Positions 16,689 through 61,619 of a stretch of 64,000 nucleotides of DNA are shown piece by piece (the stretch's first letter is position 1; every line of letters starts with the position of its first letter). The notes beneath the pieces were generated by a model. It was not told the DNA's origin. It saw only the letters and a program-made list of their open reading frames with translations, and did not search any database. The position numbers and the translations under genes were made by a program. Source of the DNA: a virus (lineage: Duplodnaviria > Caudoviricetes); IMG/VR virus record IMGVR_UViG_3300045837_000213, positions 1-64,000 of that record; one strand, 5' to 3'.

Positions 16689-16810
16689 GTACCCGCGCTT
16701 GAAAGCGCGGGTGCTGATGCTGCGGTTTCCTCTGCGGTTTAAAAACCGCAGTCTCCACCGAGGTTTTGATGAATCCGCAGCCACCGCGATTGCGCTTTCA
16801 AGCAATCGCC
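16685..16810 (-). ncRNA. Candidate structured RNA resembling a TnpB omega/reRNA scaffold
   Basis: Three hairpins; on the - strand it contains GGTGGCTGCGG near the 5' end and ends ACCCGCGC-TTTCAA-GCGCGGGT-AC-TCAC. Confidence 0.4.
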
Positions 16811-16838
16811 TCAACGTGAAGTAGAGACAAGGTGAGAG

Positions 16839-17492: not shown

Positions 17493-17839
17493 CAGACGAA
17501 GAAGTGGCGAGCAACCTGCTCACCCCGCTCTGGCGCGGCATCTCGGTAGACTACAAGGGAAAGTACGCGCGCAACATCTGGCAGCAATTCGAGGACAATA
17601 TAAGGTCTGCCGCTTACACGGCGCGAGCGTCAGAGTTTCTATCAAAGGTAGTTGCGCGACTCGGCATCACGATTGCGGCGGACGATGTCAAGCAGGTTTC
17701 AGAGTTAGTCGGAAGCGGGCAAGACCGCGCCCTGCTCAAAATGCTGCGCGACGATACGACTCTGCTCGTCTTGTTAGTGCGCGCGGACAACGAAGAACGG
17801 AAAGAGAAATTCAAGAAAGCTAAGGAGGCTTTCAAATAA
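17489..17839 (+). CDS. cas11: Type IV-B small subunit Cas11 (Csf4)
   Basis: Small helical protein (IWQQFEDNIRSAA) between csf1 and csf2. Confidence 0.72.
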   Translation: MTDEEVASNLLTPLWRGISVDYKGKYARNIWQQFEDNIRSAAYTARASEFLSKVVARLGITIAADDVKQVSELVGSGQDRALLKMLRDDTTLLVLLVRADNEERKEKFKKAKEAFK

Positions 17840-19568: not shown

Positions 19569-20245
19569 GACACGAACCTTTGCGAATCACGGCGCGACTC
19601 CAAACGCCAGTCATCTGTGACGACAGGCTACCGCTTGACGGGGCGCTGTTTTACTTCGCCATGCGCGAGCGTTACGGCTTTGAAGTCTCAACCATCCCAT
19701 GTAACGCAATCATCGGAGACGATTCAGACAAGAGGCGACTCGTGCCCTTCAAGGTCTATTACCGGAACGTCGCGGGGCAAAACTATTGGTTCTATCAATG
19801 CAGTTTCGCTTGTTGGGTCGGCACGGTCGCAGAAGGGCGCGACTATTGGGCAAAACGTTTTGACGTGAAGCAATCGGACATCGTTGATTTTCAGGGGCGG
19901 CGCGGAAAAGTGGTTACGAAGTCAGGAAAATATAAAGGCTATCGGATGCCCGTATTCACACGGCACGCGCTCGCCGTGAGGTGGTACGCGGTCGGAGATA
20001 AGAGCGAAACCGAACGGCTCTTAAACTTTTGCACGCATCTTGGAAAGAAAGAATCGCAAGGCTACGGAGCGGTCTTAGATTGGCAAGTTGAAAGATGGCA
20101 CTCAGATTGGAGTGTAGAAAGCCCGCGCGGTTTAATGCGCGCCGTGCCAAGCGAACAGGGGTTGCTGGCAGGCTTTCGCCCTTCGTACTGGTCGCCAGAG
20201 AATCAAGCCGTGTGCGCTCTGCCAGTGTCTTTTGCAGATGTCTAA
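19565..20245 (+). CDS. csf3: Type IV Cas5 Csf3
   Basis: PLRITARL, LDGAL, LGKKESQGYGAV G-loop, RPSYW. Confidence 0.88.
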   Translation: MRHEPLRITARLQTPVICDDRLPLDGALFYFAMRERYGFEVSTIPCNAIIGDDSDKRRLVPFKVYYRNVAGQNYWFYQCSFACWVGTVAEGRDYWAKRFDVKQSDIVDFQGRRGKVVTKSGKYKGYRMPVFTRHALAVRWYAVGDKSETERLLNFCTHLGKKESQGYGAVLDWQVERWHSDWSVESPRGLMRAVPSEQGLLAGFRPSYWSPENQAVCALPVSFADV

Positions 20246-20331
20246 GAGGAACAAGGCAAGTGGAGAAAACAGTAAAAGAATCCCCGCCGCTTTCAAGGCG
20301 GGGAGCGTTCAATCGAACGCGGGGGGCGCGG

Positions 20332-39518: not shown

Positions 39519-42500
39519 TTACCCGGTGGCGGTCGAGGCGAGACCCGGCGAGCCGTCGAACATCTCGCAGACCTCGACGGTCAATGCGGAGGGGATCGTG
39601 CCGCCGCCCCCCGTGTTGAAGTCCTGCTGCTGCATGGCGCGCGTGTAGGTGAAGGAGCGCGCCTGCGTATGATCCACGCGCGCCTGGAGAGCGTCCTGCG
39701 CCTCGCCCGAAAGCTGACCGACGGTGGCCTGCGCCTGGTAGGGCCAGCGCACGGGCGAGACGTTGGCGACGAAGATCGGCTTCGAGAGGTCTCCGACGTA
39801 GAAGCGGATGACGCCGCTGGCGACCTCAATCGCGCACGGGGTACCTGCCACGGCGATGCGCTTCGATGAGTCGAAGGCGACTGAGCAGGGGCGCAGGTAG
39901 AGCACGCCCGACGCGACCACGGCGTCGAGAGAGCAGAAGGCCGGCGAGGGGACGAGAGCGGGGTAGCTCATCGTGAAGCTCGCGGGTGTGCCCGAGAGAG
40001 AGACAGGCGTGCCGTTCGGGATGAGCGCGATCTGAAAGCGCCCCTCCGTGGCGTTCACGACGTAGTAAGCGCCGCTCAGGGGTGAGGCGGAGTTGAAGAC
40101 CACCTGGTCGCCGTTCTGCCAGTAATGATCGGGCGCGACGATCTCATTCGTCGCCGTGTCGCGCCCGCACGCCACGGTCGCGCCCACAAGGCGGAACTGG
40201 AGCGGCGGGTAGTGCGTGCCGAGCGTGAAGTGGACTAACGAGTCGCCGTAGATGATCTGGCCGGCCTGGAAGTCGCACGTGTGCGTCGCGTCGCCCGCGG
40301 TCGAGAGCGTGCCGTCTTCCGCGACCGAGGCGATTGAGGACGTGCCGAAGAGGTACTGCCACGCGAGCGGTTCGGAGTAGCCCGTCTCGACGTAGTGCGT
40401 GCGAATCAGGGTCGCGCCGTTGAAGACGCGGACGCGATAGACCTCGGCGACGCCGCCCGGGCCGAGCGAGCCGCGCCGGCCCTTATCCCAGGAGGCCGTC
40501 AGAGGCGAGCCGTTCGACGCGTCGAGTCGCGTGAGCTTGAGGTTCGACGGCTGCGGCAGGAAGGCGTCGGCCTGGAACGTGTACGAGGTCGCGGGCACGG
40601 TCGCGATGTCCGCGCCGGCGGCGACGAACTTATGGTCGCGCGCGACGAGCGCCTCCGACGCGTCCACCGGCAGGAACTTGAGCGCGTCGTCCAGGACGAG
40701 CAGCCGCTCGCTCGACGAGTGCCCGCTCATCGCCGTCTGGTCTTGCGCGCGGTTGACGAGGTTCGAGAAGCGCCAGCGGTTCGCGTAGCCGCCCAGTTGC
40801 GTCGCCGTCTTGTATTGCAGGCGCTCCGACCCGACCATCAGGCGGCCCAAACCGGCCGCGATGTCCGCGTCAGTGAAGCTGGCCGTCGGCTGCACCGTCC
40901 CGTAGATGTCGGCGTCTATTGTCTCGCTCCCGGTGTTCGTCGCCGCCAACGTCGTGGCGCAGACGCCGACGCACGCGTAGCGCGTCAGGTCGCACTCCTT
41001 CCTGTAACCCGCGCCGCGGTCGACATTGACCGCGCAGCCGCGGAACGGGGCCTGCTCGTAAGAGGCGACGCCTACGTAGTAGCCCTCCTTGCCCGTCGCC
41101 GCGTCTTCCGCCGTGAGGTAGTCGGTCTCGGCGAACTGCCCGACGAGAGTCGGCGGGAAGAAGACGGCGGGCGGCGTCCACGTCGGGGGCAACAGGTTCA
41201 CGGGTTCGTGGTACTGCGCGCCGGCGACGAAGACGCCCTTGAAGGCGAGCGAGCCGGGCACGGGCCCCGTCCGCTCGGAGACTCTCACCGTGTAGGTCGT
41301 GTCGCCGTCGTCTAATTCGAGAACGGTCGCGGCGGTCGCGACGAGGTACTGGTGCGGCAGGTCGAATTCGACGGCGTAGCGCCCCTCCGTCCACGCGGTC
41401 TCGCCGAGGCGCCGGGCGACCGCCGCGACCTCGTCGGGCGAGAGCGCCATCAGCGTCGTCGCCTGCTGCGGCGTCTGCGAGGTCGTCTCGTCGCGCATCC
41501 ACGAGCGCGTGACGTTCATAAATTCCGCGTTCGGGTCGTAGGCCGTGAGGTCTATGCGGCGCGGCAGCTCCACGTCGTTGAGCTTGACGCTCGTTCGAAC
41601 CAGCTTCGGCGCGTCGTTCGACTGCGAGTCGCCGCCCGCCTTCTGCGCGCCGAAGCCGAGGTGGTCGGGCGGCACGTGGTAGCTGGCCGCGCCCCCGCGA
41701 AGCACGGCAGTCACCGCGCCGCCTATGTGCGCGAAGTCGAAGCCCCACCGAATCTGGAGCGTCTGCGCGGCGATCTGTTTCAGCGAGGCGGGCTGCGTGA
41801 CGGCCATGCCGCGCACGTAGAGAGAGGAGAGAGCCGAAAAGTCGTAGTCGGCGGTGAGCGCGCCCGAGCGCACGGCGAGGTCGTCGAGGACGGCCTGCGC
41901 CGTGATGATTGATTTCGAGCGCAGGACGGCGGTGAAGTTCGGCACCCTCTGATAGTTCGTGAGGTTGAAGCGCTCCAACACGAGGTAGCAGCGCCCCTTG
42001 TACGCGGGCGCGACCGGAAGCCCGGAGCCGTATTCGACGGGGAACTGTGTCTGCCAGTAGGCGTCAATTATGGGGTCGGGGAGTTGCGCCTCGTTGCCGG
42101 GGTAGAAGCGGAGTGCGGAGAACGCGCCGCCGACGACCGTGGCCGAGACCATGCCCGTCGTGTCGGGCGCGGGGACGATCGAGAAGTTGGCCGCCGGGTT
42201 GTCACGGTAAACCGGGTCGAGCGGCGAGGGCGGCGCGAGGTGGTTGATCGTGGGCGGCGTGACGGGCGTCGGGTTGACCGCGCCCGTCACGCCGGGCACG
42301 CTCACCGTCAGCTTGTCGAGGAGCAGCGTCGTCGAGGAGAGATTTGTGACCTTAATCGTGTTGAGCGCGCCGGAGGCGAGCGCGAACGGCGCGGAGAAGT
42401 AGCCGAGCGCATAGACGCCGCCCGTCGAGTTCAACGTCGTCGTGAAGGTCGAAGTGCCGGCCGCGCCCGACCAGTCGAACCTGACCGAGACCGCCGCCGC

Positions 42501-43124
42501 CGCCGAGTAGAAAAAGTTGAGGCGGTAAGCAGCGCCGTTGCCGACGACGCCGTTGAATTGCAGCGACGCGTTCAGCCCCATCGAGACGGCCTTGCCGCCC
42601 GACGCCGCGGCGTCCGTGATCGTGGTCGCGCCGCCCGCCGGGGTGTTCCCCACGTATTCGGCCTCGTATGAGCCGAAGGCTTCGGGGATGCCCAGTTGCG
42701 GGCGGATGTCGTAGATGAGGTCGGCGTCGGCGTAGAGCGCGAGCAGTTCGCACTCGGTGTCGGCGAACATGATGCCGATGTCGGCCTCGTAATTGTCGTT
42801 GATGATTTGGGTCGAGCGCGCGCCCTTGCCCGACCCTTGCGTCTCGGTCGTCGTCGTCTGGAATTTCCTGATGTCGCTTAAATAGACGACGTTTCCGGCG
42901 ATGCGAAACCCGTGCGCGCTCCCGTCGGGCTGCACGCCCCCATAAACCAGCGGGATCATCGAGCCGTATTCGCTATCCTGTATCTGAACAGAGCCGGAGA
43001 GTTGGCCGCGCTCCTGGGCTTTCGGCTTCGGCGTTAATAAATAATTTAATGTGAACTCCGCCGCTGAGGTTGCGGCTGCGACCGCAGCAACGAGGAGTAT
43101 ACTTCCTGAGATCGGATCGGCCAT
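39519..43124 (-). CDS. Tail tip/central fibre (host-specificity J-like) protein with carbohydrate-binding insert
   Basis: YGSMIPLVYG..RIAGNV, PAYKGRCYLV, PNFT motifs; YEAE CBM-like insert. Confidence 0.85.
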   Translation of the reverse strand: MADPISGSILLVAAVAAATSAAEFTLNYLLTPKPKAQERGQLSGSVQIQDSEYGSMIPLVYGGVQPDGSAHGFRIAGNVVYLSDIRKFQTTTTETQGSGKGARSTQIINDNYEADIGIMFADTECELLALYADADLIYDIRPQLGIPEAFGSYEAEYVGNTPAGGATTITDAAASGGKAVSMGLNASLQFNGVVGNGAAYRLNFFYSAAAAVSVRFDWSGAAGTSTFTTTLNSTGGVYALGYFSAPFALASGALNTIKVTNLSSTTLLLDKLTVSVPGVTGAVNPTPVTPPTINHLAPPSPLDPVYRDNPAANFSIVPAPDTTGMVSATVVGGAFSALRFYPGNEAQLPDPIIDAYWQTQFPVEYGSGLPVAPAYKGRCYLVLERFNLTNYQRVPNFTAVLRSKSIITAQAVLDDLAVRSGALTADYDFSALSSLYVRGMAVTQPASLKQIAAQTLQIRWGFDFAHIGGAVTAVLRGGAASYHVPPDHLGFGAQKAGGDSQSNDAPKLVRTSVKLNDVELPRRIDLTAYDPNAEFMNVTRSWMRDETTSQTPQQATTLMALSPDEVAAVARRLGETAWTEGRYAVEFDLPHQYLVATAATVLELDDGDTTYTVRVSERTGPVPGSLAFKGVFVAGAQYHEPVNLLPPTWTPPAVFFPPTLVGQFAETDYLTAEDAATGKEGYYVGVASYEQAPFRGCAVNVDRGAGYRKECDLTRYACVGVCATTLAATNTGSETIDADIYGTVQPTASFTDADIAAGLGRLMVGSERLQYKTATQLGGYANRWRFSNLVNRAQDQTAMSGHSSSERLLVLDDALKFLPVDASEALVARDHKFVAAGADIATVPATSYTFQADAFLPQPSNLKLTRLDASNGSPLTASWDKGRRGSLGPGGVAEVYRVRVFNGATLIRTHYVETGYSEPLAWQYLFGTSSIASVAEDGTLSTAGDATHTCDFQAGQIIYGDSLVHFTLGTHYPPLQFRLVGATVACGRDTATNEIVAPDHYWQNGDQVVFNSASPLSGAYYVVNATEGRFQIALIPNGTPVSLSGTPASFTMSYPALVPSPAFCSLDAVVASGVLYLRPCSVAFDSSKRIAVAGTPCAIEVASGVIRFYVGDLSKPIFVANVSPVRWPYQAQATVGQLSGEAQDALQARVDHTQARSFTYTRAMQQQDFNTGGGGTIPSALTVEVCEMFDGSPGLASTATG

Positions 43125-43334
43125 TTTGTGAGAAAAAGAAAAATGCCAGTGGGCAGACGTAGAGGTCTGCCCCCGCTGGCATTTTCGAGGTTCCGTTTTT
43201 TCCTTGATTATAGGTCGCGGTTCGCCGTCGCGGCCCGATCAGGAGTGACGCGCGTTGCGCGCGCTGTTAATACCATGCATTATAGCCGCGCCACTTGTCA
43301 ATTTGTTTCTCACGAATGGTAAAGGAGGCGAAAA

Positions 43335-43787
43335 ATGACGCGAATTTTTGCGATGGCCCTACTTTTCTCAGCCTTCGCCCTGGCGCATGGCGCTCCGCAA
43401 GTCGCCGACAGGCCAGCAGGTAAGGCCACGGTCTATTTTTACAGGCTCAAGGAGTCGGGGCCCTACATCAAGACCAAGACGAGTGTTTACTGCGACGATG
43501 AAAAGCTGGCGGAGATAGGGAACGAGAGATATTTCGCCGCCATGCTCGAACCCGGCATTCACACGTTCAGGTCAACAGATAAGCAGAGCGGCATCGAGAA
43601 AGAATTGAAGGCTGGCGAGGTCTATTATGTGAGAATCGAAATGAATTTGACCCGGATTAAATTATTCCGCAAGCCACCTTTCAGGGTGGCGACCGTCGAG
43701 CCTGAGCAGGGTAAGTATGAGGTAAAGCGATTGAAGCCCATAAGTGAAGGTGATGTTAAGAACCATGAGAAGGTGACATTGCGGTAA
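43335..43787 (+). CDS. Secreted DUF2846-like protein (moron)
   Basis: Signal peptide; KATVYFYR, LEPGIH, LKAGEVYYVR. Confidence 0.75.
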   Translation: MTRIFAMALLFSAFALAHGAPQVADRPAGKATVYFYRLKESGPYIKTKTSVYCDDEKLAEIGNERYFAAMLEPGIHTFRSTDKQSGIEKELKAGEVYYVRIEMNLTRIKLFRKPPFRVATVEPEQGKYEVKRLKPISEGDVKNHEKVTLR

Positions 43788-44027
43788 TTACAATTTAGGC
43801 TCGCGCTCGTGGACGTATCTCTCAAGGCAAGTGTAGCCGTCCGCTTTGGCTTGTGCGGCGTAGCCCCTGAGCCTGGCGATGATCTGCTCCGGCGTGCCCC
43901 GCGTCGTGTCATTCAAGATCGCCGCCGCCGAGAGCACGTCACCCCGCGTAAACTCGAACTCGTCTATGACGAGGAGTAAAGCGTCCTCCAACTCCGGCCT
44001 GCCCGTGTAGTAAAACCCCCCGCTCAC
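43788..44027 (-). CDS. Hypothetical protein
   Basis: Coupled to the upstream HTH gene. Confidence 0.5.
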   Translation of the reverse strand: MSGGFYYTGRPELEDALLLVIDEFEFTRGDVLSAAAILNDTTRGTPEQIIARLRGYAAQAKADGYTCLERYVHEREPKL

Positions 44028-44251
44028 TTCTTCCCGCCTTTCTTTGTTGATGGCCGCCCGCCCTTATCAGGCGTGAACTCTTGAAGGTCGCGGCGTGAGA
44101 TGAATTTCTTTCCCGCGATTTCAATGAATGGGAGTTTACCTTGTCTTACTAGATGGCTAATCGCCTGTTTGGTAGTGCCGCGCTCTTCCGCGGCCTGCGT
44201 GATTGTAAGGAGTTCTTCGGGGTCTATTTTCACCATATACCTATTATACAT
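44024..44251 (-). CDS. Excisionase-like HTH regulator
   Basis: LLTITQAAEERGTTKQAISHLVRQGKL; GGRP tail. Confidence 0.8.
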   Translation of the reverse strand: MYNRYMVKIDPEELLTITQAAEERGTTKQAISHLVRQGKLPFIEIAGKKFISRRDLQEFTPDKGGRPSTKKGGKK

Positions 44252-44345
44252 ACCTTTTGCCGGATGACAATATGTTATGCAAATTAAATATGCGGCTTGG
44301 CAATAAATCTCTTGCCTTCCGACAAAAGGTTATTTATAATCCTTT
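44252..44345. promoter_or_regulatory. Divergent AT-rich promoter region of the moron
   Basis: TTGCCT upstream of TATAAT on the + strand; GACAATATGTTATGCA site shared with the cI/cro region. Confidence 0.6.
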
Positions 44346-44498
44346 TGTCGCTAGACAAAAGGAAAGGCGGGCGAACATGGAAGACAAGAAAGAGCAGAAG
44401 CAGGAGACGCCGGAGGAGCGGGCCGAGCGGCAGGAGCTTAACCGGCGGATGTTCGAGTGGTTCTACGGCTACTGCGGCCAGATGGAGACGACGGTTCT

Positions 44499-44858
44499 AT
44501 GTTAAGGAAATTTCGTCCCATTACGCTCATCACCCCTTTACAGGCGGCCACGCTTCTCGGCGTTGACCGCGCGGAACTCTTCAGGCGTTCGGGAGTCGCG
44601 GCGCACCTGGCGAAGGTGCGCCAAGGGAAACGCTTCTCTTTCGTCCTCGAAGAAGTCGAGGCTCTCAGAAAGGAGTTACTTATGGATTACGTGATTCTAT
44701 TGGCCCGCGACCCAAGCTCGCTCGCCTCTCAGGTAAACGACCTTATCAAGCGCGGGTGGCAGCCTCAGGGCGGCGTCGCCGCGAGCGAAGTTCACGAGGA
44801 AGGGACGGCGGCAGCGACGCAGTGGGCGCAGGCGATGGTTAAGCCCCAGTCGGAGTAA
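44499..44858 (+). CDS. HTH protein paralogous to 6820-7080, fused to a DUF1737-like domain
   Basis: AHLAKVRQG...FVLEEVEA; VNDLIKRGWQPQGGV...AQAMVK. Confidence 0.65.
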   Translation: MLRKFRPITLITPLQAATLLGVDRAELFRRSGVAAHLAKVRQGKRFSFVLEEVEALRKELLMDYVILLARDPSSLASQVNDLIKRGWQPQGGVAASEVHEEGTAAATQWAQAMVKPQSE

Positions 44859-44889
44859 ACGAACATTCCTCAGGAAGGGAGAGGGATTC

Positions 44890-45303
44890 ATGGCACAACG
44901 GGAAAGCACGGACGATATGTATTCATTACTCAAGAGGCGTTTCGACTGCTCGGAGCGGGCCGCGCTCGTCAGGCGGAAATTCGAGGTGCTGACGGTCGGG
45001 CGCGTCTCTTACCTGATTCAGTCAATCGTCTCCGAGGAGCAGGACACCTTCAAAGAGAGGTTCAACCGCCCGATCACCTTCGAGCAGGCGAAGGAGTTGG
45101 CGTCGCGGCTCCTGACGGGCGACTTCGGCGGCGGCGACGGGCAGATTCACGCCCTCATCGAGCTAATCGTCGGGATCGCCTACGAGGAGGATCACGTCGA
45201 GCGCGAACGGCTTGCGATGAGCGCTATCCGCGAGGCGTTCTTTTTCTCGGAGGCCCACGACGAAGCTTTGAACCAATTTTTCCATTGCGGGCCGAAGCAA
45301 TGA
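44890..45303 (+). CDS. Hypothetical helical protein
   Basis: GAGGG RBS; coupled to the HNH gene. Confidence 0.6.
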   Translation: MAQRESTDDMYSLLKRRFDCSERAALVRRKFEVLTVGRVSYLIQSIVSEEQDTFKERFNRPITFEQAKELASRLLTGDFGGGDGQIHALIELIVGIAYEEDHVERERLAMSAIREAFFFSEAHDEALNQFFHCGPKQ

Positions 45304-45605
45304 GGCGAAGATTGACTCAGGCGGAAAAGTTGCGACGGCTCTTCCAAAGGCGTCGTATGGCTACGGCCCGGCGGATGCTACGCCGGGCCGCGTCATACGG
45401 CGTAAGGGCCGAACATGTGACCCTCGACGAGATCATCGAGCGCGACGGAACGCGCTGCCACCTTTGCGGCTTAGAAACAGACGTGGACGATAGGACTCAC
45501 GACCACGTTGTGCCTCTCGTCAGGGGCGGGGAGCATACGACTATCAACTTACGCATCGCCCACAGGCGGTGTAATTCAATGAAGGGCGGTAAGAGTCACG
45601 CCTGA
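45300..45605 (+). CDS. HNH endonuclease
   Basis: RDGTRCHLCG...DHVVPLVRGG...NLRIAHRRCNSMKG. Confidence 0.92.
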   Translation: MRRRLTQAEKLRRLFQRRRMATARRMLRRAASYGVRAEHVTLDEIIERDGTRCHLCGLETDVDDRTHDHVVPLVRGGEHTTINLRIAHRRCNSMKGGKSHA

Positions 45606-45624
45606 TTCTAAAACGAGTTTTCTT

Positions 45625-45704
45625 GGGCGGGCATGGCTCGGTGAGGTAGGGCAACGCATGGAACGGTTTGGCCCGGCGCAGTATGGCCTGGCAAGGCATG
45701 GTTC
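45625..45704 (+). ncRNA. GGY-NN pentamer array 1 (candidate guide RNA)
   Basis: gggcg ggcat ggctc ggtga ggtag ggcaa cgcat ggaac ggttt ggccc ggcgc agtat ggcct ggcaa ggcat ggttc; intergenic. Confidence 0.85.
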
Positions 45705-45725
45705 AAACGCAAAAGGAGCATGAGA

Positions 45726-46349
45726 ATGTCAAACATCGTCAAGGCGAAAATCACGATCAGGGGTATGCGTCCGCTCTTACAACATCATTTCGGGCCGGAC
45801 GCGTTGCCTTTGGAAAAGCAGGAGAAAGACGGCGTGGCGGGGAACTCGCCCAACGAGTGGCGGAAGACGGCGATGGTCACTAAAGACGGCCAGCTTTACC
45901 TTGAGCCGACCTACGCCTTTGCCACAATCCGCGACGCGGCGAAGTACACGAAAAAGGGGAGAGGCTCACTCCAAACCGCCGTCGCCGCCACCCTTCAAGT
46001 GCTGGACGACAGGATTTTGATTGATAGGTTTTTTCCGGGCTTCCCGAACGGACATGCCTTCGACATCCAGAAGGTCGAGCCGCCTTCGCTCGACAGGGAG
46101 CTTCCGGTTTACCTCGACGTGCAGTCTGTGAGGAATCCGACCACCAAAGCCCGCAACGTCAGGTACAGGGTGGCCGCATCCTCCGGCTGGTCGTGTTCGT
46201 TTACGATCATGTTCGACAAGACAGTCGTTGACCGTAACCAGATGCAAGCTGTCCTTAATGACGCCGGCACTCTCGTCGGTATTGCCGACGGCAGAAGCGT
46301 TGGGTTTGGCAGGTTTTCCGTTGAAGCTTTCGACTTCTTAGAGTCTTAA
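45726..46349 (+). CDS. Stand-alone Cas7/RAMP-like protein (Vipr-like effector)
   Basis: First strand ITIRGMRPLLQH, YLEP...TIRDAA helix, RNVRYR, W.CSFTI, C-terminal G-loop GIADGRSVGFGRF; AAGGAG RBS; no other cas gene adjacent. Confidence 0.82.
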   Translation: MSNIVKAKITIRGMRPLLQHHFGPDALPLEKQEKDGVAGNSPNEWRKTAMVTKDGQLYLEPTYAFATIRDAAKYTKKGRGSLQTAVAATLQVLDDRILIDRFFPGFPNGHAFDIQKVEPPSLDRELPVYLDVQSVRNPTTKARNVRYRVAASSGWSCSFTIMFDKTVVDRNQMQAVLNDAGTLVGIADGRSVGFGRFSVEAFDFLES

Positions 46350-46352
46350 CGC

Positions 46353-53898: not shown

Positions 53899-54016
53899 TA
53901 TCCGTTTCTCCTTGGTTGTGGTGAGTGGTCGGGTGAAGCGACGGGGCCGCGCCGGCGGCGAGGACGAGGAAGTCATGCGCCGCCGGCGCGCCGGGCCGCG
54001 CTATGGGGTGCGGGCT

Positions 54017-54436
54017 TTAGTAAGTCGCGCGCGTGACCGCGCCCGAAATCTGAAAGTCCGCCGTGAAGGAGACGAGCGCGTTCTGCGCGCCCGACTTCTT
54101 GAACGACGTGCAGTAGCAGTTGCCCGTGTATTTGACGTTGCCCGTGGCGCTCCCCTGCGGCCCCAGCTCGAACGCGACCGGTGTGGCGAAGCCGAGGAGC
54201 GCGCCGAGGTGGCCGTCGAGCGCGGCTGTCCAGTTGCCGCCGCCCGAGAACTTGTTGTCCTTGAAGCCGACCTCGAAGGTCTTGTCGGTGTCCTGGAAGG
54301 CGGTCGATTCCGCCATGTCCACCGCCTCGTCGAAGTCGAGCGTCTTGAAGTTGTTGCTGCGGTCGGTAACCACAGACGGCGCGCCTTGCGTGCCGATCTT
54401 GACGACGTATTTGCGTGAGTGAACAGCGCTGCCCAT
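54017..54436 (-). CDS. Major tail tube protein
   Basis: ESTAF.D..KTF..G.KD, FELGPQG, YTGNC, FTADFQISG. Confidence 0.82.
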   Translation of the reverse strand: MGSAVHSRKYVVKIGTQGAPSVVTDRSNNFKTLDFDEAVDMAESTAFQDTDKTFEVGFKDNKFSGGGNWTAALDGHLGALLGFATPVAFELGPQGSATGNVKYTGNCYCTSFKKSGAQNALVSFTADFQISGAVTRATY

Positions 54437-54532
54437 GTTGAGGTTCTCCTGTTGAGGGTTGAGGGTTGAACGGGGCGGCGCTCGTCGGCGTGGGCGAGCG
54501 CCGGATGCTGGCGGCTGGGGTTCGTGCGCCCC

Positions 54533-55291
54533 TTAGAACGGGTTGAGCGCGAAGGAGACGGCGAAGGTCGCGCCGTTCGTGCCGGTGAAGGTCCAGGTCG
54601 CGCGGACGTAGCGGCGCACGTTTCCGGCGACCGAGATCGGCTGGCCGCCAAGGGCGGTCACGGCGTTGAAAGTGCCGACGGTCGCCCAGCCCGTCAGCCC
54701 GTCCGCCGAGTCCTCGATCTGGACGGCGAGCGTGGTGGCCGAGCCGACGACGGTCGCGTGCAGGTTGGCGCGAAAGCCGACCTGGGAGGCCGCCCCAAGG
54801 TCGAGGACGGCGGACGAGGCGTTCGTCGTGCGGGCGAGCAGTCGCGCGAGCGTGTAGCCGTAGCGAAGGCCGCCGTCCGCCTGCATGTCGGCCATGCAGG
54901 AGATGAGGTTGTCCGCCGGCGCCTGCACGCTGTAACGCGTGAGCTTCGTCGAGAAGAGCGTCGCCGAGACGCCGTCCGCCGCCATCCCCTCGTGGGCGAC
55001 GGTCACGGCGTAGGCTTGCGTGGCGACGCCGATGATCTGCGAGAGGACGTCGTCGACCAGGTCCCGGTTGAGCGGGTTGGCGTCGCCGGCGTTCGCGGAG
55101 AAGAGGCCGGAGAGCGACGCCTTGCCGTCGGGCACGGCGGGCGCGAACGACTTGTCGTTTGTCGGCTCGTCGAAGCAGGTCGAGTCGAGCGCCGCCGCGC
55201 TGCCCTCCGTGTCGACTTTGTTGAAGAAGTTCGAGAGGTCGTAGCCGTCGACGAGGACTTTCGTCTTCCGTGAGTGAATTGCGCTGCCCAT
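54533..55291 (-). CDS. Second tail-tube-like protein with extra C-terminal beta domain
   Basis: Shares MGSA(I/V)HSRK start and DSTCF..KSF...DG motif with 54017-54436. Confidence 0.72.
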   Translation of the reverse strand: MGSAIHSRKTKVLVDGYDLSNFFNKVDTEGSAAALDSTCFDEPTNDKSFAPAVPDGKASLSGLFSANAGDANPLNRDLVDDVLSQIIGVATQAYAVTVAHEGMAADGVSATLFSTKLTRYSVQAPADNLISCMADMQADGGLRYGYTLARLLARTTNASSAVLDLGAASQVGFRANLHATVVGSATTLAVQIEDSADGLTGWATVGTFNAVTALGGQPISVAGNVRRYVRATWTFTGTNGATFAVSFALNPF

Positions 55292-55332
55292 CTTTGAGGT
55301 TCTCCTGTTGAGGGTTGGCGGTTTCGAGCTGC

Positions 55333-55803
55333 TTACGGCCTGTCCACCAGGATCTCGAAGCGAACGCCCTGGCTCACCTGGTCGCGCGCGTTCGGCCCCT
55401 GGCTCGCCGCGGGCGGGACTCCCGTGTAGGGGCGGCAGTTGAGGAGTTCGTACCCGGCGATGGAAAGCTGCGCGTCGGTGAGGACGCGCCGGACGTGGCC
55501 GACCAGAGTCGAGCAGATCTGCTCGCCCGTCATCACGCCGTCGCGGTCTTCGGCCCAGGCCGTGAACTCGTAGGGGTATCGCTCCTCGGCCGGGCCGCCG
55601 AACGTGTAGCCGTATCCGGGCGTGAGCGCGCGGAAGGTGACGAACGGGAGCGGAGTCCCGTCGTCGGCCTGCACGTTCCAGACTCCGCCCTGCGGCGCGC
55701 CCTGCTGCCCGAACAGCGAGACGTAGAACGCGCCGAGTTGCAGGTCGCCGGCGAGCGCCGCGTAGAGCGCTTCGTTGATCGGGTCTGTCGCGTCGTCGGC
55801 CAT
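55333..55803 (-). CDS. Tail terminator/completion protein (DUF3168-like)
   Basis: ALYAALAGD..L, PLPFVTF; position. Confidence 0.7.
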   Translation of the reverse strand: MADDATDPINEALYAALAGDLQLGAFYVSLFGQQGAPQGGVWNVQADDGTPLPFVTFRALTPGYGYTFGGPAEERYPYEFTAWAEDRDGVMTGEQICSTLVGHVRRVLTDAQLSIAGYELLNCRPYTGVPPAASQGPNARDQVSQGVRFEILVDRP

Positions 55804-56205
55804 TTAGTTGAGGGCGAAGATTTGGGCGAGGTCGCGGTTGAGAGAGTCGCGGCACGCCTCGAAGGCGGCCAGGAGGAAGGGGTTGCCGGCGTAGTGGCCG
55901 TTGCCGTTATGTACCCACAGCGCGTAAGGCGCGGTATAGGCGACCGACTTGGCGACGCCGGACTGCCGCCCGTCGCCGACGGTGCTGGCGTAGTCAATGA
56001 TCTGCCCGGACTTCTTGAGGAAGTCGGGGTGAGGGTTCCCCTGCGCGTCAACGTATTGGCGGTCGCCGACGTTGACTAACTGCTGCGAGATGGCGAGGAC
56101 GTTTCTGGCCCACGCGTTGATGCATCGGCCCGCGCGCGGCCTCAGCTGCTGACGCAACTCCGCGACGCGGTTGCGCTGCGTGACCTTGTACTGGATGAAG
56201 GGCAT
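55804..56205 (-). CDS. HK97 gp10-like neck protein
   Basis: APYALWVHNG...GNPFL. Confidence 0.72.
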   Translation of the reverse strand: MPFIQYKVTQRNRVAELRQQLRPRAGRCINAWARNVLAISQQLVNVGDRQYVDAQGNPHPDFLKKSGQIIDYASTVGDGRQSGVAKSVAYTAPYALWVHNGNGHYAGNPFLLAAFEACRDSLNRDLAQIFALN

Positions 56206-56245
56206 CCCTCGTCACCACGGCTTTTTCAAACATCGCCCCGCGCCC

Positions 56246-56671
56246 TCAGCGCGCCGCGCTGTTCTGCTCCTCGACCGTGACGATCTCGCGCACCACGCCG
56301 TTGAGGATGACGGAGCGCACGACCTCGACCTCCGTGACGGCGGGCTGCTCGCCGCGGGCGAGGATGGTCAGCTTGTCGAGGGTCGTGCAGTCGACGGAGG
56401 CCGCGCACAGCACGCGGCGGAAGATGACGGGAACTCTTCGCTTGGCGGCGATCTGCTCGAGTTCCAGCCCGCGCCGCTCCATCGTCGAGACGGCGAGGGC
56501 GGAGAAGGGGGTCTGAGTCGTCGCCGTGTAGCGTTTGATCGTGCCGCCGCGACCGTCGGAGACCGGGGCCGCCGAGCGAAGCACGTAGAAGGAGTCGGTG
56601 CCTTCGGCGGCGGCCAGCGCCGCGACGGTCGGGGCGAGGCGGTCGAGGAGTTTTCCGAGTGCGAGCGACAT
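56246..56671 (-). CDS. Head closure/head-tail adaptor
   Basis: SDGRGG motif; position. Confidence 0.6.
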   Translation of the reverse strand: MSLALGKLLDRLAPTVAALAAAEGTDSFYVLRSAAPVSDGRGGTIKRYTATTQTPFSALAVSTMERRGLELEQIAAKRRVPVIFRRVLCAASVDCTTLDKLTILARGEQPAVTEVEVVRSVILNGVVREIVTVEEQNSAAR

Positions 56672-56677
56672 TTCCCT

Positions 56678-57205
56678 TTACGCCCTCACGATGCGCACGC
56701 CGCCCGGCCCGGCGGTCAGCCACGGCGCGATGAAGTTCAGCACCCGCGGCGGCAGGTCGTCCTCGTTGGGGAGTTGCTCCCTCATCTCGAATTCCAGGAC
56801 GTTCGCGACGTGGAGCGACTTGAACTGCCTGAGGGCCTGGTCGACGACGAGCGTCGGGTCCTGCCTGAGGTAGAAGAGCGCCAGCTCGCAGCAGGCGAAC
56901 TTCACCGGCGGGATGACGTTCTCCTGCGGGTAGAAGTAGCCGTGGTCGTCTTCGAGCCAGAAGCGCGGGTGCTTCAGGGCCTGCGTGACGTGAGTCGGGA
57001 GCGAAACCCACTGGAGGCGTTCGAGCCTGCGCGTCGCCTTGCACAAAGCCTGCTCCTTCTTCAGGAGGTCGGGCGGGTTCGTGTTGACGAGCGCGTTCCA
57101 CTCCGCCGCGTAGAGTTCGCCGCCGAAGTAGTCGTCGGCGAACTCCACGGTGCAGTAGCTGTTGGAAGTCGTCCCGCCTTCGGTCGCGTCAAAGAGGAAT
57201 GCCAT
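56678..57205 (-). CDS. Head-tail connector (DnaT-like annotated family)
   Basis: NSYCTVEFADDYF, QALKHPR, IPPVKFACCELA. Confidence 0.78.
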   Translation of the reverse strand: MAFLFDATEGGTTSNSYCTVEFADDYFGGELYAAEWNALVNTNPPDLLKKEQALCKATRRLERLQWVSLPTHVTQALKHPRFWLEDDHGYFYPQENVIPPVKFACCELALFYLRQDPTLVVDQALRQFKSLHVANVLEFEMREQLPNEDDLPPRVLNFIAPWLTAGPGGVRIVRA

Positions 57206-57329
57206 CTGCCGGTACCCGGATGAGAGGAAGCGGGGCGCGTCAAGGAGAGGAACCCGCGCCCCGGCGGCGCCGACCTGGTGGGGGAGCGCGCGCGGTGTGT
57301 GGCGCGCGCGCAGCCAGCGCCGGAGAGGT

Positions 57330-57650
57330 TTACTTAGCCGCGGGCGTTTCGGCCTCGGCCTTCGCCTCGGATTCCTTCCTGGCCTTCGCCTCGGCGTCTG
57401 CCTTAGCTTTGGCTTCCGCCTTCGCCTTGGCCTGCGCCTCGCGCTTCGCTTTGGCCTCCGCCTCAGCCGCGGCCTTGGCAGCCTCTTCAGCCTCCGCCTT
57501 AGCTTTCGCTTCAGCCTCGGCGCGCTCGCGCTCGGCGTCCTCGAAGAGCTTGTGCGTCGAGGCGTCGAAGTCGCTCTCGTTGATCGTGGCGAAGCCGCTC
57601 GGCGCGCCTTCGTGCGCGATCCTTACTGTCGGAACCTTCATGGTCGTCAC
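57330..57650 (-). CDS. Small Ala/Lys/Glu-rich capsid-adjacent protein
   Basis: PTVRI...INESDFD..TH N-terminus plus AKAEA repeats. Confidence 0.65.
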   Translation of the reverse strand: MTTMKVPTVRIAHEGAPSGFATINESDFDASTHKLFEDAERERAEAEAKAKAEAEEAAKAAAEAEAKAKREAQAKAKAEAKAKADAEAKARKESEAKAEAETPAAK

Positions 57651-57809
57651 GTCTCTCCCTTGTTGAGTCGAGTGGGTGAAATTCCTGCGCGGAAGTTAAG
57701 GCCCAGCGTCTTCCGGGAATCGCTTACGTTTTCTCATATCACCGTGGGGTTAATGAGAATACAAAGAACCCCCGGAAGACGATTGCCTTAACCTATTCGC
57801 CGGAGGCTG

Positions 57810-58943
57810 TTAACCCAGAAGGATGGCGGCGTGGTCGGGCTTGATGAGGGCGACCCCCCAAGCAAGGCTCAGCTCGTAACGCACCCTTCTATATTGCGGA
57901 TAAACCGCCACCTCAAATGAGAGGCCGGAACGCGGATCGGTAATGATCTCGCGGTCGGTCGCCATGTCGCCCTCCTCGGGGAGTGCGGGCGGCCTGGCGA
58001 CGAGGATCACGGCGCTGCGGTGGAAGGCCATGTTCGCCGTGTAGGAGTTGCCCACGGTCAGGGCGTCCGACGCCGAGTGCGCCAGGCGCAGGCCCGGCGA
58101 GTTCAGCACGATTGAGCCGGGCGCGTTGATGCCCGTGCCGACCACGTACTTGTTCGCGTCGCCCGCGATGGTCACGATGTCGCCGGCGTTGACGTTGCCG
58201 GTGCCGGTGATGAGCGCGATGGACGTGTCCTTCACGGCCTGGTTGGCGGAGAGGACGTAAGAAGCGCCGTTGCCCTTCGTGACCTGCTTGATCTGCGCGG
58301 ACTCGCGGATCTGCATGCCGAAGAGGTTCAGGAGGACGCCCTGGCGGAGCAGCTCGTCGCCGCCCGCCTCGTTCGCCTTCGTCAACTGCGTGTTCGAGCG
58401 CATGTTGGCGCCGGCGTTCGTGTCGATGATGAGGTGCACGTCGCCCTCGGGCGCGCCGTTGTCCTTGAGGATCTTGAGGACCTGCGCGGCGTCGCCGACG
58501 CCCGTGGCGAACGGGGTCGTGCCGGCGGTGCCGTAGGCGCGGGAGGCGCGGTTGAAGAGGCCGGCCAGGTCAGACTCGACCTCGTTGCAGGCGGCGCGCA
58601 TTGCCTGCGCGATCTGCTGCACCTTGATCGAGCGGTAGCCGACGCCGGTGTTCATTCCCTTCTGCTCCTCACCCTGCCAGCGGAAGGGGAAGGTGCGCGA
58701 CTTGGTGATCGAGAGCGTCGTGTTGCCCACGGTCTGGTCGCCGGTGTCGGGCGGTAAGCTTCCGGGCGTGGTGTTCTCGCCCGTCGAGGCCGGCGTGACG
58801 GGCACGCGGATCGTCTGGTTGAGCGCGGCGCGCTCGGCGGATGCGTCGAGCGTGACAGCCGGTATGAAGCCGACTAATTCACGACTCACAATGTCCAGGG
58901 CCTCGTAAAGGTCCGGAAACATATTCGACAAACTGTTGGCCAT
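57810..58943 (-). CDS. Major capsid protein (P22-coat-like family)
   Basis: ALDIVSRELVGFIPAV, NMAFHRSA, DPRSGLSFEV, AWGV...P. Confidence 0.9.
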   Translation of the reverse strand: MANSLSNMFPDLYEALDIVSRELVGFIPAVTLDASAERAALNQTIRVPVTPASTGENTTPGSLPPDTGDQTVGNTTLSITKSRTFPFRWQGEEQKGMNTGVGYRSIKVQQIAQAMRAACNEVESDLAGLFNRASRAYGTAGTTPFATGVGDAAQVLKILKDNGAPEGDVHLIIDTNAGANMRSNTQLTKANEAGGDELLRQGVLLNLFGMQIRESAQIKQVTKGNGASYVLSANQAVKDTSIALITGTGNVNAGDIVTIAGDANKYVVGTGINAPGSIVLNSPGLRLAHSASDALTVGNSYTANMAFHRSAVILVARPPALPEEGDMATDREIITDPRSGLSFEVAVYPQYRRVRYELSLAWGVALIKPDHAAILLG

Positions 58944-59070
58944 GTTGAGGTTTCCTTTTTGGTGGGTTGAGGTCGGTTGGTGTCGTGGGGGGCGCGCGCG
59001 CTATGCGGACGCGCCCCGCTTTCACGAACTCGTGGGCCGCGGTCTATGGAAGGCCGCGGGCGTTCTTGTT

Positions 59071-59850
59071 TTAGTCTTCGACCTTGCCGCCTTCCTTGAA
59101 GAAGGTCATGCGCTCCTGCGCGCCCATCTGCTCGAACTCCTGCCGCTTGACAGACTTCTTCGAGGAGCCGCCCGCCGCGCCGCCCGCCGGCGAGCCGGAG
59201 CCGGAGCCGCCGGTCGGCGCGTAGAACTTGGGCTTCTGCTCCTTGAACTGCTTGCCGAAGAAGTCTTCGAGCGAAGAGCCGGAGTCTTTGCCGTCCGCGC
59301 CGAGGACGACGACCTGGCCCTCCTGCGAGAGGTCGAAGCGCGAGGCGGTGAGGGTCATCACGTCCTCGATGTCGTCGGCGAGCACGCCCGCGTGGAGCGC
59401 GGCGGCCCGCACCTTGTCGTCGAGTTGAAACTTGCGGAGCGCGCGGTCGCGCTCGGCGATCGTCGCGTCGCGCGCCTCGATCTCCTTGATCTTGGCGTCG
59501 AGGGCCTTCTGCGCCTTATCGCGCTCGGCGGCGAGCAGCTCTTCGAACTTGCCCTTGTCCTTGAGCTTCTTCTCCTCGGCGTCGGCGAGCGCCTGCAAGG
59601 CCTCGCGCGCTTTGTCGGGGTCGATGTCCTTGTAGCGCTCGTAATCGCCCTTGAGCCGCTCGATCTCTTTATTCGCCGTCCGGCGGGCCTCGCGCTCGCG
59701 CTCCAGCGCCGTGCGCAGCTCCGCGCCGTCGTCGATCTCGATCTCGTCGAGGTGGAACTTCTTGTCTTCTCCTTCGGTGTACCTGCCGCGATATGCCTCC
59801 GGCACGTCGTTCAGGCTGTCGACTACTGACTTGAGTGTGATTTTCGGCAT
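59071..59850 (-). CDS. Capsid scaffolding protein
   Basis: Coiled coil, GGSGSG linker, GGKVED end; upstream of the capsid gene. Confidence 0.82.
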   Translation of the reverse strand: MPKITLKSVVDSLNDVPEAYRGRYTEGEDKKFHLDEIEIDDGAELRTALEREREARRTANKEIERLKGDYERYKDIDPDKAREALQALADAEEKKLKDKGKFEELLAAERDKAQKALDAKIKEIEARDATIAERDRALRKFQLDDKVRAAALHAGVLADDIEDVMTLTASRFDLSQEGQVVVLGADGKDSGSSLEDFFGKQFKEQKPKFYAPTGGSGSGSPAGGAAGGSSKKSVKRQEFEQMGAQERMTFFKEGGKVED

Positions 59851-60264
59851 TGTGAGCACCGCTCCTTTGCGCGGGGTCGCGACGGGCGCCGCCCGGTCGC
59901 TTTGTGGTGGGTAATTGGTGGGTCGTCTTGCGGGCTAAAGAAAAACCGCCCGCCATTAACGAAACTGCCCCGTGAGTCATCCCGACTCTTGGGCGGCTTG
60001 GTTAATCGCGGGCGGAGCGGTTTTCCGGTCGGCCCGTCTGTGCTGGAGCGCTCTCGTCAGCTCTGCCGCCGCGCCGGCCTGCGCGAGGCTCGTGCGGCGG
60101 AGGCGTTCGAGCGCCTTAATGACCTTAGCATAGTCGGCGTCCGATCCGTCAAGCAAATTATTCAAATCGCATTGCTCGTTGTGCATGGCGGGCGCGGGAA
60201 GTCTCTTTCCGTGAGGCCCTTAACTTGGGAAAGAATTTTTGGAAGGAGGGGAGTCGGGCCGCCT

Positions 60265-60561
60265 TCAGGCGGCGGCCTGCGGTTCGAGGTCTGCGGCCTT
60301 GGAGAAGGAGAGGAGCGTCACGGGGAGGCCTTTCTTATCCCAGTCCGTCAGCGTGGTGAATTCCGCCGTGTCGCCGACCTTGAGGGCGCGGTACAGGCGG
60401 TCGAAGTCTTCCGCGGGGATGATGGCGGAGAGCGTGGCGTGCCTGGTCTGGCCTTCAACGTCACGGCCCGTGACGATGTAAACGACGCGCGCGGGGCGGT
60501 CGCCCTCCGCGGCCTTGATGGCCGTGATCCTTCCTCGGCTTGTGGCCCGCGTTTCGCTCAT
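60265..60561 (-). CDS. Hypothetical protein
   Basis: Coupled to the upstream gene. Confidence 0.5.
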   Translation of the reverse strand: MSETRATSRGRITAIKAAEGDRPARVVYIVTGRDVEGQTRHATLSAIIPAEDFDRLYRALKVGDTAEFTTLTDWDKKGLPVTLLSFSKAADLEPQAAA

Positions 60562-61619
60562 CGCTTCCCCCTCGGCGGCAGCCGTCGATTAAGAGGCGGC
60601 AAATCTGGAGGGGCTACTCCGGTGCCTCCGGTTTGGACATTCACCCCCCGCAATAGATCGTAAATGGCTATCTGATTATAACGGCGCGCGAGGTCCTCGG
60701 CGACTGTTTTTTCGACCGTGGCGACCAGGTCGAGGTAGGTCAACTCTTCAGTCGGGTTGAACCAGCTCCCGACCGAATAGCGTGAGTCCTTCAAAAGCTC
60801 CAGGTTGTCGACGATGAAGGATTTGACTTTCCCTGTCGGGAGGGCGCGACCGGGATATTGCCGGGTGATCTCGCCGTTCGGGAAAGGGGAGACGGCGAAA
60901 AGCGGTAGCCCTCGCATGTCGCCTCTGAACGGGTTGACGGTCGCGCCGCCTTTCGACTCGTGAAGCGTGACCACCTTCTCGGCAATCGCGCCTATGTTGA
61001 CGGAGCGGAATTCGACCTCGCACCGGCAAAACTGCATACACTCCTGCGAGCCGATCTCTTCCAGCTCGTCGAGCGGCACCCACGAAAGCGCCTCCTGCTC
61101 CACACACCCGTCGCAGTGCTCGGTCGCGACCGCGCCCGTCTGCCGCCGCGCCTCTACCAACTGCTCCGTGTCAGCCATGCGCCCGGCCATCGTCCGCCAG
61201 AAGGCGACGCGGGCGTTCGCCGCGTAGGAGGCGGCGCGCGACCGCACCAGCCCCGAAGTGATCCTCAGGCGACCGGAGCTGAGGTCGCGGGCGAATGATT
61301 CGAGGTGCGTGTACTCCTTCTTCAGTCTTGCGCCGACCCGGCCCCAGTCCGCCTTCGTCATCTGACTGAAGCCGCCGGCGGCAGCCGCCGCGCTCACGGC
61401 GTGGAGCGAGCGGAGTTCGGCGCGCATCCCCTGCTGAAACTCTTTCGTGGTGATCGCGCCACGCTGGAGGTCGGCGGCGAGCGCGCGCATCCGCGAGGCC
61501 GCGCGGCGGTTCACGGAGTCGAGCGCGCGCATCACGTCCGGGCGCGGCACGTACCGGCCCGTCGAAGTGTCGCGGTAGCGCAGCGAGAGTCTGTCCCAGG
61601 CGTAGCGCGGATTAAGCAT
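60558..61619 (-). CDS. Minor head (Mu gpF-like) protein with additional C-terminal domain
   Basis: RYRDTSTGRYV, EHCDGC...EC...CRC; C-terminal VGSW...YLD...NQIAIYDL. Confidence 0.7.
   Translation of the reverse strand: MLNPRYAWDRLSLRYRDTSTGRYVPRPDVMRALDSVNRRAASRMRALAADLQRGAITTKEFQQGMRAELRSLHAVSAAAAAGGFSQMTKADWGRVGARLKKEYTHLESFARDLSSGRLRITSGLVRSRAASYAANARVAFWRTMAGRMADTEQLVEARRQTGAVATEHCDGCVEQEALSWVPLDELEEIGSQECMQFCRCEVEFRSVNIGAIAEKVVTLHESKGGATVNPFRGDMRGLPLFAVSPFPNGEITRQYPGRALPTGKVKSFIVDNLELLKDSRYSVGSWFNPTEELTYLDLVATVEKTVAEDLARRYNQIAIYDLLRGVNVQTGGTGVAPPDLPPLNRRLPPRGKR

Follow-up and report, generated by a model that had tools for sequence, protein, structure and literature searches.

AT-rich codon tracts flanking a phage VIPR cassette as candidate gene-conversion tracts with guide-resistant alleles

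OMEGA systems, the RNA-guided nucleases of the TnpB and IscB type, retain transposons at their sites through guided cleavage followed by homologous repair. Phages carry free-standing homing endonucleases, including SegB, SegG and MobE of T4 and enzymes of the HNH and GIY-YIG types, which PMC2790892, PMC2330249 and PMC10448857 treat together with marker exclusion. Systems of the Viral Interference Programmable Repeat type (VIPR) consist of the RAMP protein Vipr, an accessory gene (vap) and a guide RNA termed vrRNA (bioRxiv 10.64898/2026.04.26.720920, 10.64898/2026.04.26.720927, 10.64898/2026.10.15.759431). Here we describe a VIPR cassette in the tail gene region of a GC-rich tailed phage, within a stretch of 64,000 nucleotides (the window) that is the first 64 kb of the 93,431-bp virus record IMGVR_UViG_3300045837_000213. 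The window has a GC content of 66%, and the bulk of its genes have a GC content at third codon positions (GC3) of 0.86-0.89. Genes on either side of the cassette contain patches of A/T-ending codons, and we consider how these patches, probably imported together with the cassette, relate to its guides.

In the description given in 2026 preprints, Vipr is an ancestral RAMP of ~20 kDa with an RRM core and a glycine-rich loop, and the vrRNAs are 9-16 tandem YNNGG repeats, GGY alternating with a variable dinucleotide (NN), in intergenic positions around vipr (bioRxiv 10.64898/2026.04.26.720920). The vrRNAs are expressed, processed and bound by Vipr, have a conserved structured 3' tail behind the repeats, and form a complex that binds double-stranded DNA; an adjacent accessory vap gene has a DNA-interacting product. 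Two bases of the target are read and one is skipped, with the skipped base on the codon wobble position, and the natural targets are competing phages, including other vipr genes (bioRxiv 10.64898/2026.04.26.720920).

The island at 43.1-47.07 kb of the window is a VIPR system comprising a Vipr RAMP, a predicted HNH-type accessory nuclease and four GGY-NN vrRNAs. We identify it as such because GGY-NN arrays of 13-17 units flank a Csm3/Cas7-like protein, and because vipr and the HNH-like gene are kept paired. The original prediction, made from the letters of the DNA, had posited a guide system and worked out its code; the guide system is real, and that code matches the published VIPR code. The cassette (43125-47068, plus strand) is a low-GC island of 3.9 kb (50-60% GC) inserted between two minus-strand genes, the NlpC/P60 tail gene (P60; true extent 47069-47551, shorter than the long open reading frame) and the tail-tip gene (Phage-tail_3, 1201 aa, 39519-43124). 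On its plus strand lie HNH endonuclease 1 (45285-45605; Pfam HNH, 36.7 bits), array A1 (45625-45704; 16 GGY-NN units), vipr (45720-46349; a Cas7-like RAMP of 207-209 aa), array A2 (46353-46418; 13 units with a 1-nt slip after unit 8), array A3 (46489-46575; 17 units, two of them of 6 nt), an HNH-like accessory gene that is the vap candidate (46578-46874; 98 aa; Pfam HNH below threshold at 16.6 bits) and array A4 (46884-46953; 14 units). The remaining content is a DUF2846 lipoprotein gene, a divergent HTH_17 gene, a DUF1737 gene and a terminator-like hairpin after A4. Rfam searches of the cassette gave only sub-threshold chance matches, including PrrB/RsmZ at A4 (E 0.7).

The Vipr protein had no Pfam hit and has 1314 homologues at E<1e-10, none of them annotated. 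An AlphaFold model (207 aa; pLDDT 65, pTM 0.64) had as its top Foldseek matches in the PDB the Csm3/Cas7 subunits of type III-A and type VII complexes (E 7.5e-6, prob 1.0, TM 0.45-0.55), and the C-terminal loop GRSVGFGRF is invariant across 26 homologues. The accessory HNH-like gene adjoins vipr at the window locus and in five other cassettes, which is every cassette examined; by tblastn its product is 55-82% identical in contigs L041-43 and in L032, and H41, H44, N53, N57, H66, C26 and C62, which include the HNH catalytic residues, are invariant in 6 homologues. GGY-NN arrays also lie beside the vipr homologues of L041-43 and of G001 (which is L032/L033). HNH endonuclease 1 had no homologue in L032 or L041-43 and, within the examined cassettes, is known from the window locus only.

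Several other observations concern the cassette. Between A2 and A3, a short open frame (46431-46478, plus strand) encodes FGRSTVEGFEFIDS before its stop, resembles the resident Vipr C-terminus FGRFSVEAFDFLES and starts within the motif read by A2. From direct reading of the sequence we annotate it as the relic of an older vipr 3' end, which hints at turnover of the cassette. At 44243-44340, where the minus-strand HTH_17/Cox-like gene (44024-44251) faces away from the cassette operon on the plus strand, are divergent promoter-like sites with 11/12 and 10/12 consensus matches; HTH_17 genes are found upstream of vipr in L041-43 too, and the cassette seems to carry its own switch. A near-identical direct repeat of 12-13 nt, AGAAAA(A)TGCCAG, is present at both cassette edges (43137-43149 and 47036-47047) and may be a junction or a duplication from insertion; the left copy makes up one arm of a long hairpin (~43140-43186), which lies immediately upstream of where the tail-tip gene starts. 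G001, a 70-kb IMG/VR phage with terminal repeats, has two diverged vipr-HNH modules in tandem (57204-61330), which do not lie in a gene transfer agent-like tail operon. Each module has its own arrays, and the two Vipr copies are 68% and 29% identical to the Vipr of the window.

The arrays were decoded by taking the NN pairs as codon positions 1 and 2 and scoring local amino-acid (codon-family) compatibility. The null was 400 order-shuffles over the 292,148 six-frame residues of the virus and of L034, L035 and L036, which are phage contigs found by search with the tail-tip N-terminus. For each of the four arrays 0/400 shuffles reached the observed score (null means 5.0-5.7, null maximum 7), and in all four decodings the skipped base was always at codon position 3. 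A1 decoded with a score of 10 to HGFRIAGNVVYLSDIR of the tail-tip protein (codons 71-86, 42867-42914, minus strand; null 5.6+-0.6, maximum 7) and A3 with a score of 9 to SNVRQLALLDDLIAKQN of the tape measure (codons 971-987, 50170-50220, minus strand); the best genome-wide matches of both fall in the phage's own tail genes. The original prediction had placed decoded guide targets in two AT-rich patches, and the tail-tip and tape-measure targets, with scores of 10 and 9 against a null maximum of 7, bear this out.

The third tail-gene target had gone unseen in that prediction. A4 scored 9 on GFETFDYFYDLI, found only in the P60 genes of L035 and L036, and its best score anywhere in the resident genome was only 4. 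The orthologous site in the resident P60 is codons 54-67 (47351-47392), where the peptide reads GFELHDYEYHIV, such that the NlpC/P60 patch is the target of the resident A4 in the relatives' version of the gene. A2 decoded in sense, with a score of 8, to the 3' end of vipr (46287-46316, DGRSVGFGRF). As judged from sequence, three of the five patches are tied to resident guides. Raw dinucleotide matching against order-shuffles gave p=0.03-0.04 for A1 and A3, with no signal from either A2 or A4; the decoding was decisive only with codon-family scoring and with the relatives included. In G001, which is independent and of 49% GC, the array following the HNH homologue scored 9 (null maximum 7), its decoded target being the opening codons of the gene that adjoins the cassette. 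Exact-pattern scans of IMG/VR and JGI metagenomes for perfect A1 and A4 targets found none except L044, an unrelated 49%-GC contig with no homologous genes, in which we regard the match to the exact guide pattern as chance.

The patches themselves were assessed by shuffling codons among synonymous positions within each gene 500 times and scoring 20-codon windows. GC3 fell to 0.57 in codons 1-46 of the tail-tip gene (42987-43124; 0.90 in the whole gene, p<0.002), to 0.66 and 0.64 in capsid codons 3-37 (58833-58937) and 331-366 (57846-57953; p<0.002 for each), and to 0.62 in tape-measure codons 931-969 (50224-50340; p=0.006), and was ~0.6 in NlpC/P60 from codon 41 through the stop. The AT-rich codon patches noted in the original prediction in these four genes are consequently real. 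Such patches are not peculiar to essential virion genes: 19 windows genome-wide had a GC3 <=0.60, roughly half of which fall at the ends of genes and some of which belong to replication or regulatory genes. Gene ends in this genome dip in general, GC3 being 0.89 mid-gene but 0.70-0.74 over the opening 10 codons and 0.77 over the closing 10; the dips in the tail-tip and capsid genes are deeper and longer than this. TTA is rare, at 55/23,171 codons, and three of these are tail-tip codons 26, 29 and 30. Scans for promoters and terminators found nothing inside the patches and only the divergent promoter-like pair of the cassette.

Tract limits were set by a maximum-likelihood segment search on third-position AT (AT3). 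Within the tail-tip N-terminal patch (42860-43124, minus strand) the strongest tract is codons 3-52 (42969-43118), with an AT3 of 0.46 inside and 0.10 outside; that of NlpC/P60 spans codons 39-158 (47078-47437, minus strand) and that of the tape-measure patch (50170-50340, minus strand) codons 931-982 (50185-50340). The patches are thus 50-120 codons long, as against 14-17 codons for a guide footprint. The A1 and A3 targets are at the edges of the AT3-rich tracts and outside their core (the 41 codons centred on each target have a GC3 of 0.80).

Within the footprints, the resident genes differ from the guides in a particular manner. At a Leu, a Ser and an Arg of the A1 footprint the guide reads CT, TC and CG; all three relatives use CTC, TCG/TCC and CGC there, and the resident uses TTA, AGC and AGG. 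The A3 footprint contains four Leu codons as TTG or TTA, three of which the guide reads as CT, and in the A2 footprint in vipr the guide's TC and CG stand against Ser AGC and Arg AGG. Taking the sites in tail-tip, tape measure and vipr together, wherever the guide reads the common Leu, Ser or Arg codon block the resident is in the other block (8/8; p ~3e-7 under bulk codon usage and ~7e-4 under the AT-shifted usage of the tract itself). Among Leu, Arg and Ser residues conserved with the relatives, 7/10 were switched inside the two tail footprints and 45/421 elsewhere in the same genes (Fisher p=2e-5). The six-fold codon swaps proposed in the original prediction are therefore what sets the resident apart from its guides. 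Both Leu codons of the G001 footprint are likewise TTA where its guide reads CT, and the resident NlpC/P60 is a diverged allele instead of a block-switched copy. From these patterns, the resident copies appear to have been made poor guide targets, and Leu/Ser/Arg block switching suggests a synonymous way round a wobble-skipping code. The VIPR preprints state that wobble-skipping prevents mutational escape, and the block switches at the window locus run against that statement.

The relatives lack both the cassette and the flanking tracts. L036 is the closest of them (88% identity in the BR0599-like gene and 82% in the tail-tip). In L034-L036, P60 is followed directly by the tail-tip gene with a gap of 0-122 nt, as compared to 3.9 kb here, and no cassette was found in the available DNA of these contigs. 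Their P60 genes have a GC3 of 0.80-0.87 along the whole gene, versus 0.5-0.7 in the resident from codon 41, and the GC3 dip in their tail-tip genes is limited to the first 20 codons (0.67-0.69 in L034 and L036). Patches shared with relatives that lack the system would have spoken against the original prediction; the patches flanking the cassette are not so shared. The guides, too, agree more closely with the relatives than with the resident. For A1, 8/16 NN pairs match in the resident and 10, 10 and 11/16 in L034-L036; for A3, 8/17 in the resident and 10/17 in L035; and for A4, none in the resident and 10/14 in L035 and L036. For these guides L034-L036 match at 59-71% of NN and the resident at 47-50% (none for A4). 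For A2, 7/13 match in the resident vipr and 8-9/13 in the vipr genes of L041-43.

The codon usage of the tracts is that of the cassette. The tracts have a GC3 of 0.61-0.67 and use the minor codon block at 0.32-0.45, the corresponding values being 0.70 and 0.35 for the cassette genes and 0.86 and 0.15 for the bulk genome. The low-GC3 DNA forms a single block that begins ~13 codons upstream of the A4 site in P60, takes in the cassette and stops at the tail-tip gene's A1 site; a separate tract of ~52 codons in the tape measure ends in the A3 footprint. We read the patches as imported because they are wider than the targets, contain wobble changes that a guide would not see, and have a codon usage in common with the cassette. 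Our interpretation, to which we attach somewhat better than even confidence, is that the patches are gene-conversion tracts brought in with the cassette from a lower-GC donor and bearing immune alleles. Co-converted homing tracts had been the last alternative offered in the original prediction, and they fit the long tracts, the wobble changes and the cassette-like codon usage better than its leading proposal.

The sequence of events that we envisage is as follows. The guides read codon positions 1 and 2 of conserved peptide segments in neighbouring tail genes: A4 in NlpC/P60 on one side of the cassette, A1 in the tail-tip gene on the other side and A3 in the tape measure 3 kb off, with A2 directed at vipr itself. 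A cassette-less ancestor would be attacked by these guides and, we infer, cleaved by the HNH partner. Repair by homing-type co-conversion would then copy the cassette and its flanks from the lower-GC donor, and the two flanking guide sites (A4 and A1) would be the ends of the copied segment; both the event and its direction are deduced from the arrangement of the tracts. The imported immune alleles would let the cassette live beside its own targets.

A number of results weigh against this interpretation. No donor lineage was found, and the tail genes of L041, tried as a donor, are too distant. The nine arrays of L041-43 gave no match above null in their own 20 kb or in the window genome. The relatives' 59-71% NN match is below the 80% used in the preprint for target calls, so that the real targets would lie elsewhere. 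The closest relatives, with 82-88% amino-acid identity in tail genes and 72% in the capsid, are too distant to date or orient a conversion. NlpC/P60 evolves fast in all relatives (55-67% identity pairwise), so that the divergence of the resident is not special by itself, and the tail-tip N-terminus (residues 1-90) is not more diverged from L036 than the rest of the protein (84% vs 80%). Among all windows, the GC3 around the A1 and A3 targets ranks only at the 21st percentile. Loss of translational coupling to P60 could also account for the AT-richness of the first 20 tail-tip codons. For the conserved HNH partner the Pfam score is below threshold, nuclease action being deduced from its conserved residues only, and the published VIPR types act by silencing (bioRxiv 10.64898/2026.04.26.720920). 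Apart from these points, an IMG/VR scan with the P60 protein returned nothing. Contigs of two soil-metagenome sequencing runs that contain the sequence, and may be the source sample, showed no cassette-less joint and yielded only the source contig and short unrelated GC-rich matches; no RNA run is listed.

Ordinary causes, namely 5'- and 3'-end codon bias together with everyday phage mosaicism, with a coincidental closeness to guide targets, would accommodate the genome-wide dips at gene ends, the occurrence of low-GC3 windows in virion and non-virion genes alike and the variability of NlpC/P60 in all relatives, and they are the best available reading for the N-terminal patch of the capsid gene. 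We regard them as an unlikely explanation for the patches in general. Low-GC3 tracts make up just a few percent of coding DNA, yet all three tail-gene guide targets are in, or within 20 codons of, such a tract; the A4 and A1 sites form the limits of the foreign block; the tracts are missing from cassette-less relatives; block switches are concentrated in guide footprints (p=2e-5); and the tail-tip and capsid dips exceed the general end effect in depth and length. A role in self-regulation, in which weak pairing of the vrRNAs with tail genes of the phage itself would tune expression and an incomplete match would be the intended condition, would agree with A1 and A3 matching the phage's own tail genes best genome-wide and with the silencing of transcription from within coding sequences by published VIPR (bioRxiv 10.64898/2026.04.26.720920). 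This role is highly improbable: disturbed NN pairing abolished silencing in the preprint (bioRxiv 10.64898/2026.04.26.720920) and the resident matches at just 47-50% of NN, the mismatches are exactly where synonymous recoding is possible, A4 is without a resident match yet matches the relatives, and the relatives match the guides better than self.

The leading proposal of the original prediction was that the patches are scars of escape in situ, that is, that resident genes were hit by their own or rival phages' VIPR guides and accumulated point mutations as AT-rich patches. Escape of this type might explain why the block switches exceed even the codon usage of the tract and why minority-block codons are enriched in the capsid patches, and from a GC3-saturated gene most synonymous changes go towards A/T. 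It does not suit the patches as a whole. A wobble-skipping guide is blind to third positions, yet it is AT3 that defines the patches; the AT3-rich core of the tail-tip tract (codons 3-52), with its ~18 extra AT3 codons, is outside the A1 footprint; and the tracts, far longer than any footprint, are contiguous with the cassette and have its codon usage. In addition, among the arrays of the window and of five other cassettes, none has a decoded match in TLNYLL or in the capsid patches. We therefore view scars formed in place as unlikely too, a shade more so than the ordinary causes, and retain import with the cassette as the preferred account of the tracts beside it.

The two patches of the coat gene (P22-type, 57810-58943, minus strand) are not explained by the window VIPR locus. 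It had been suggested that arrays decoded from other phages might map onto them, and no array of the window genome, G001 or L041-43 does so; pattern scans in either orientation found no vrRNA that spells the capsid YRRVRYE motif. The C-terminal patch (57846-57953, codons 331-366, minus strand) has AGA AGG (Arg-Arg) and AGC (Ser) in YRRVRYE.SLAWG, where relatives have CGC CGC and TCG, and is absent from 10 relatives at 50-71% identity. The N-terminal patch (58833-58937, codons 3-37, minus strand) is present in a weak version in some relatives and is partly the ordinary 5'-end dip seen genome-wide. Minority-block Leu, Arg and Ser codons are enriched in the two capsid patches (7/18 vs 5/43, Fisher p=0.02), a pattern that fits either a past conversion tract or chance mosaicism.

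Extending the interpretation beyond this locus, it is conceivable, though we would put it as rather doubtful at present, that HNH-linked VIPR cassettes are RNA-guided homing elements. The vrRNAs of such elements would direct cuts in cassette-less relatives at conserved peptide-coding sites that flank the insertion point and at others farther away, and repair would install the cassette together with recoded, guide-proof flanks. Block switching would then be a general means of escape and self-immunity. Orphan patches that are low in GC3 and block-switched within a conserved motif, the capsid YRRVRYE.SLAWG for example, would record earlier attack by other cassettes. The window locus by itself suggests that block switching lets the phage live beside guides aimed at its own gene family, and its nuclease-linked VIPR in a tail operon looks like a self-spreading cassette that drags its recoded flanks along. 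Such a cassette would be the RNA-guided equivalent of a phage homing endonuclease and would promote mosaicism among virion genes, and low-GC3 block-switched tracts beside decoded targets offer a sequence signature for finding such events in metagenomes.

The cassette is set in a minus-strand virion module (34 to 66 kb) that includes the coat gene, the tape measure (49132-53130), DUF2460-like and BR0599-like tail genes, the NlpC/P60 and tail-tip genes and a 1717-aa fibre gene. A nucleotide search of the cultured-phage database with 42000-48400 found no match; the top capsid match in that database has 55% identity, and the best capsid relative from any source 72%, which limited comparison of the capsid patches to distant relatives. 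The C-terminal third of the fibre gene (34421-36727) includes a number of stretches low in GC3 (0.78 overall, with Ser AGY at 0.37), as well as internal repeats of 122-164 nt, and probably reflects a mosaic receptor-binding region. A 7-nt tandem repeat of ATGAGTG (~14 copies, or alternatively 21-nt units) lies directly upstream of the tape-measure start (53154-53250), where tail chaperone genes are expected. The 43%-GC gap between the DUF2460-like and BR0599-like genes contains an 11-nt repeat (TGGTATCAAAC, 3.8 copies) and an adjoining 14-nt repeat (48366-48437). A second low-GC island (52-57% GC) is found at 16300-20300 among plus-strand early genes; no GGY-NN arrays were found in it or anywhere in the genome outside the cassette.

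The VIPR system itself is already known, and the locus resembles the published systems in most respects. It has a RAMP of ~20 kDa without a Pfam family, intergenic arrays of 13-17 GGY-NN pentamers, targets read with a 1-nt skip on the wobble position, one guide aimed at the vipr 3' end and an accessory gene that adjoins vipr, and it is phage-borne with targets in the genes of related phages. It differs in its partner, which is of predicted HNH type, whereas the type II systems studied silence transcription with a DNA-binding Vap, and in its setting, a phage tail operon, whereas the nuclease-bearing types of the preprint are mainly in host defence islands. The guides here point at genes flanking the insertion site, the resident copies are recoded, and the flanks are seemingly co-imported. 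Neither the synonymous escape route nor a self-spreading cassette is stated in the three VIPR preprints, and the text of bioRxiv 10.64898/2026.04.26.720920 contains none of the terms homing, gene conversion and recoding.

The likeness to homing endonucleases lies in a nuclease gene whose insertion separates genes found next to each other in relatives, a resident allele that differs at the recognition site, flanking DNA that appears co-converted, and a setting of competition between related phages in mixed infection, as portrayed in PMC2790892, PMC2330249 and PMC10448857. In those systems a protein recognises the site, whereas here recognition would be by guide RNAs in a Cas7-like filament, with several target sites, one of them 3 kb off; cleavage and homing at the window locus are proposals. 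OMEGA systems share with this proposal a mobile element whose own guide RNA is directed against the empty site, with repair copying the element back. They differ in having unrelated proteins (RuvC/HNH with omega RNA), contiguous guide pairing, and a transposon instead of a phage cassette. Compared to all of these, our analysis suggests as new the link between guide targets, block-switch immunity and a co-imported low-GC block at an HNH-linked cassette in a tail operon.

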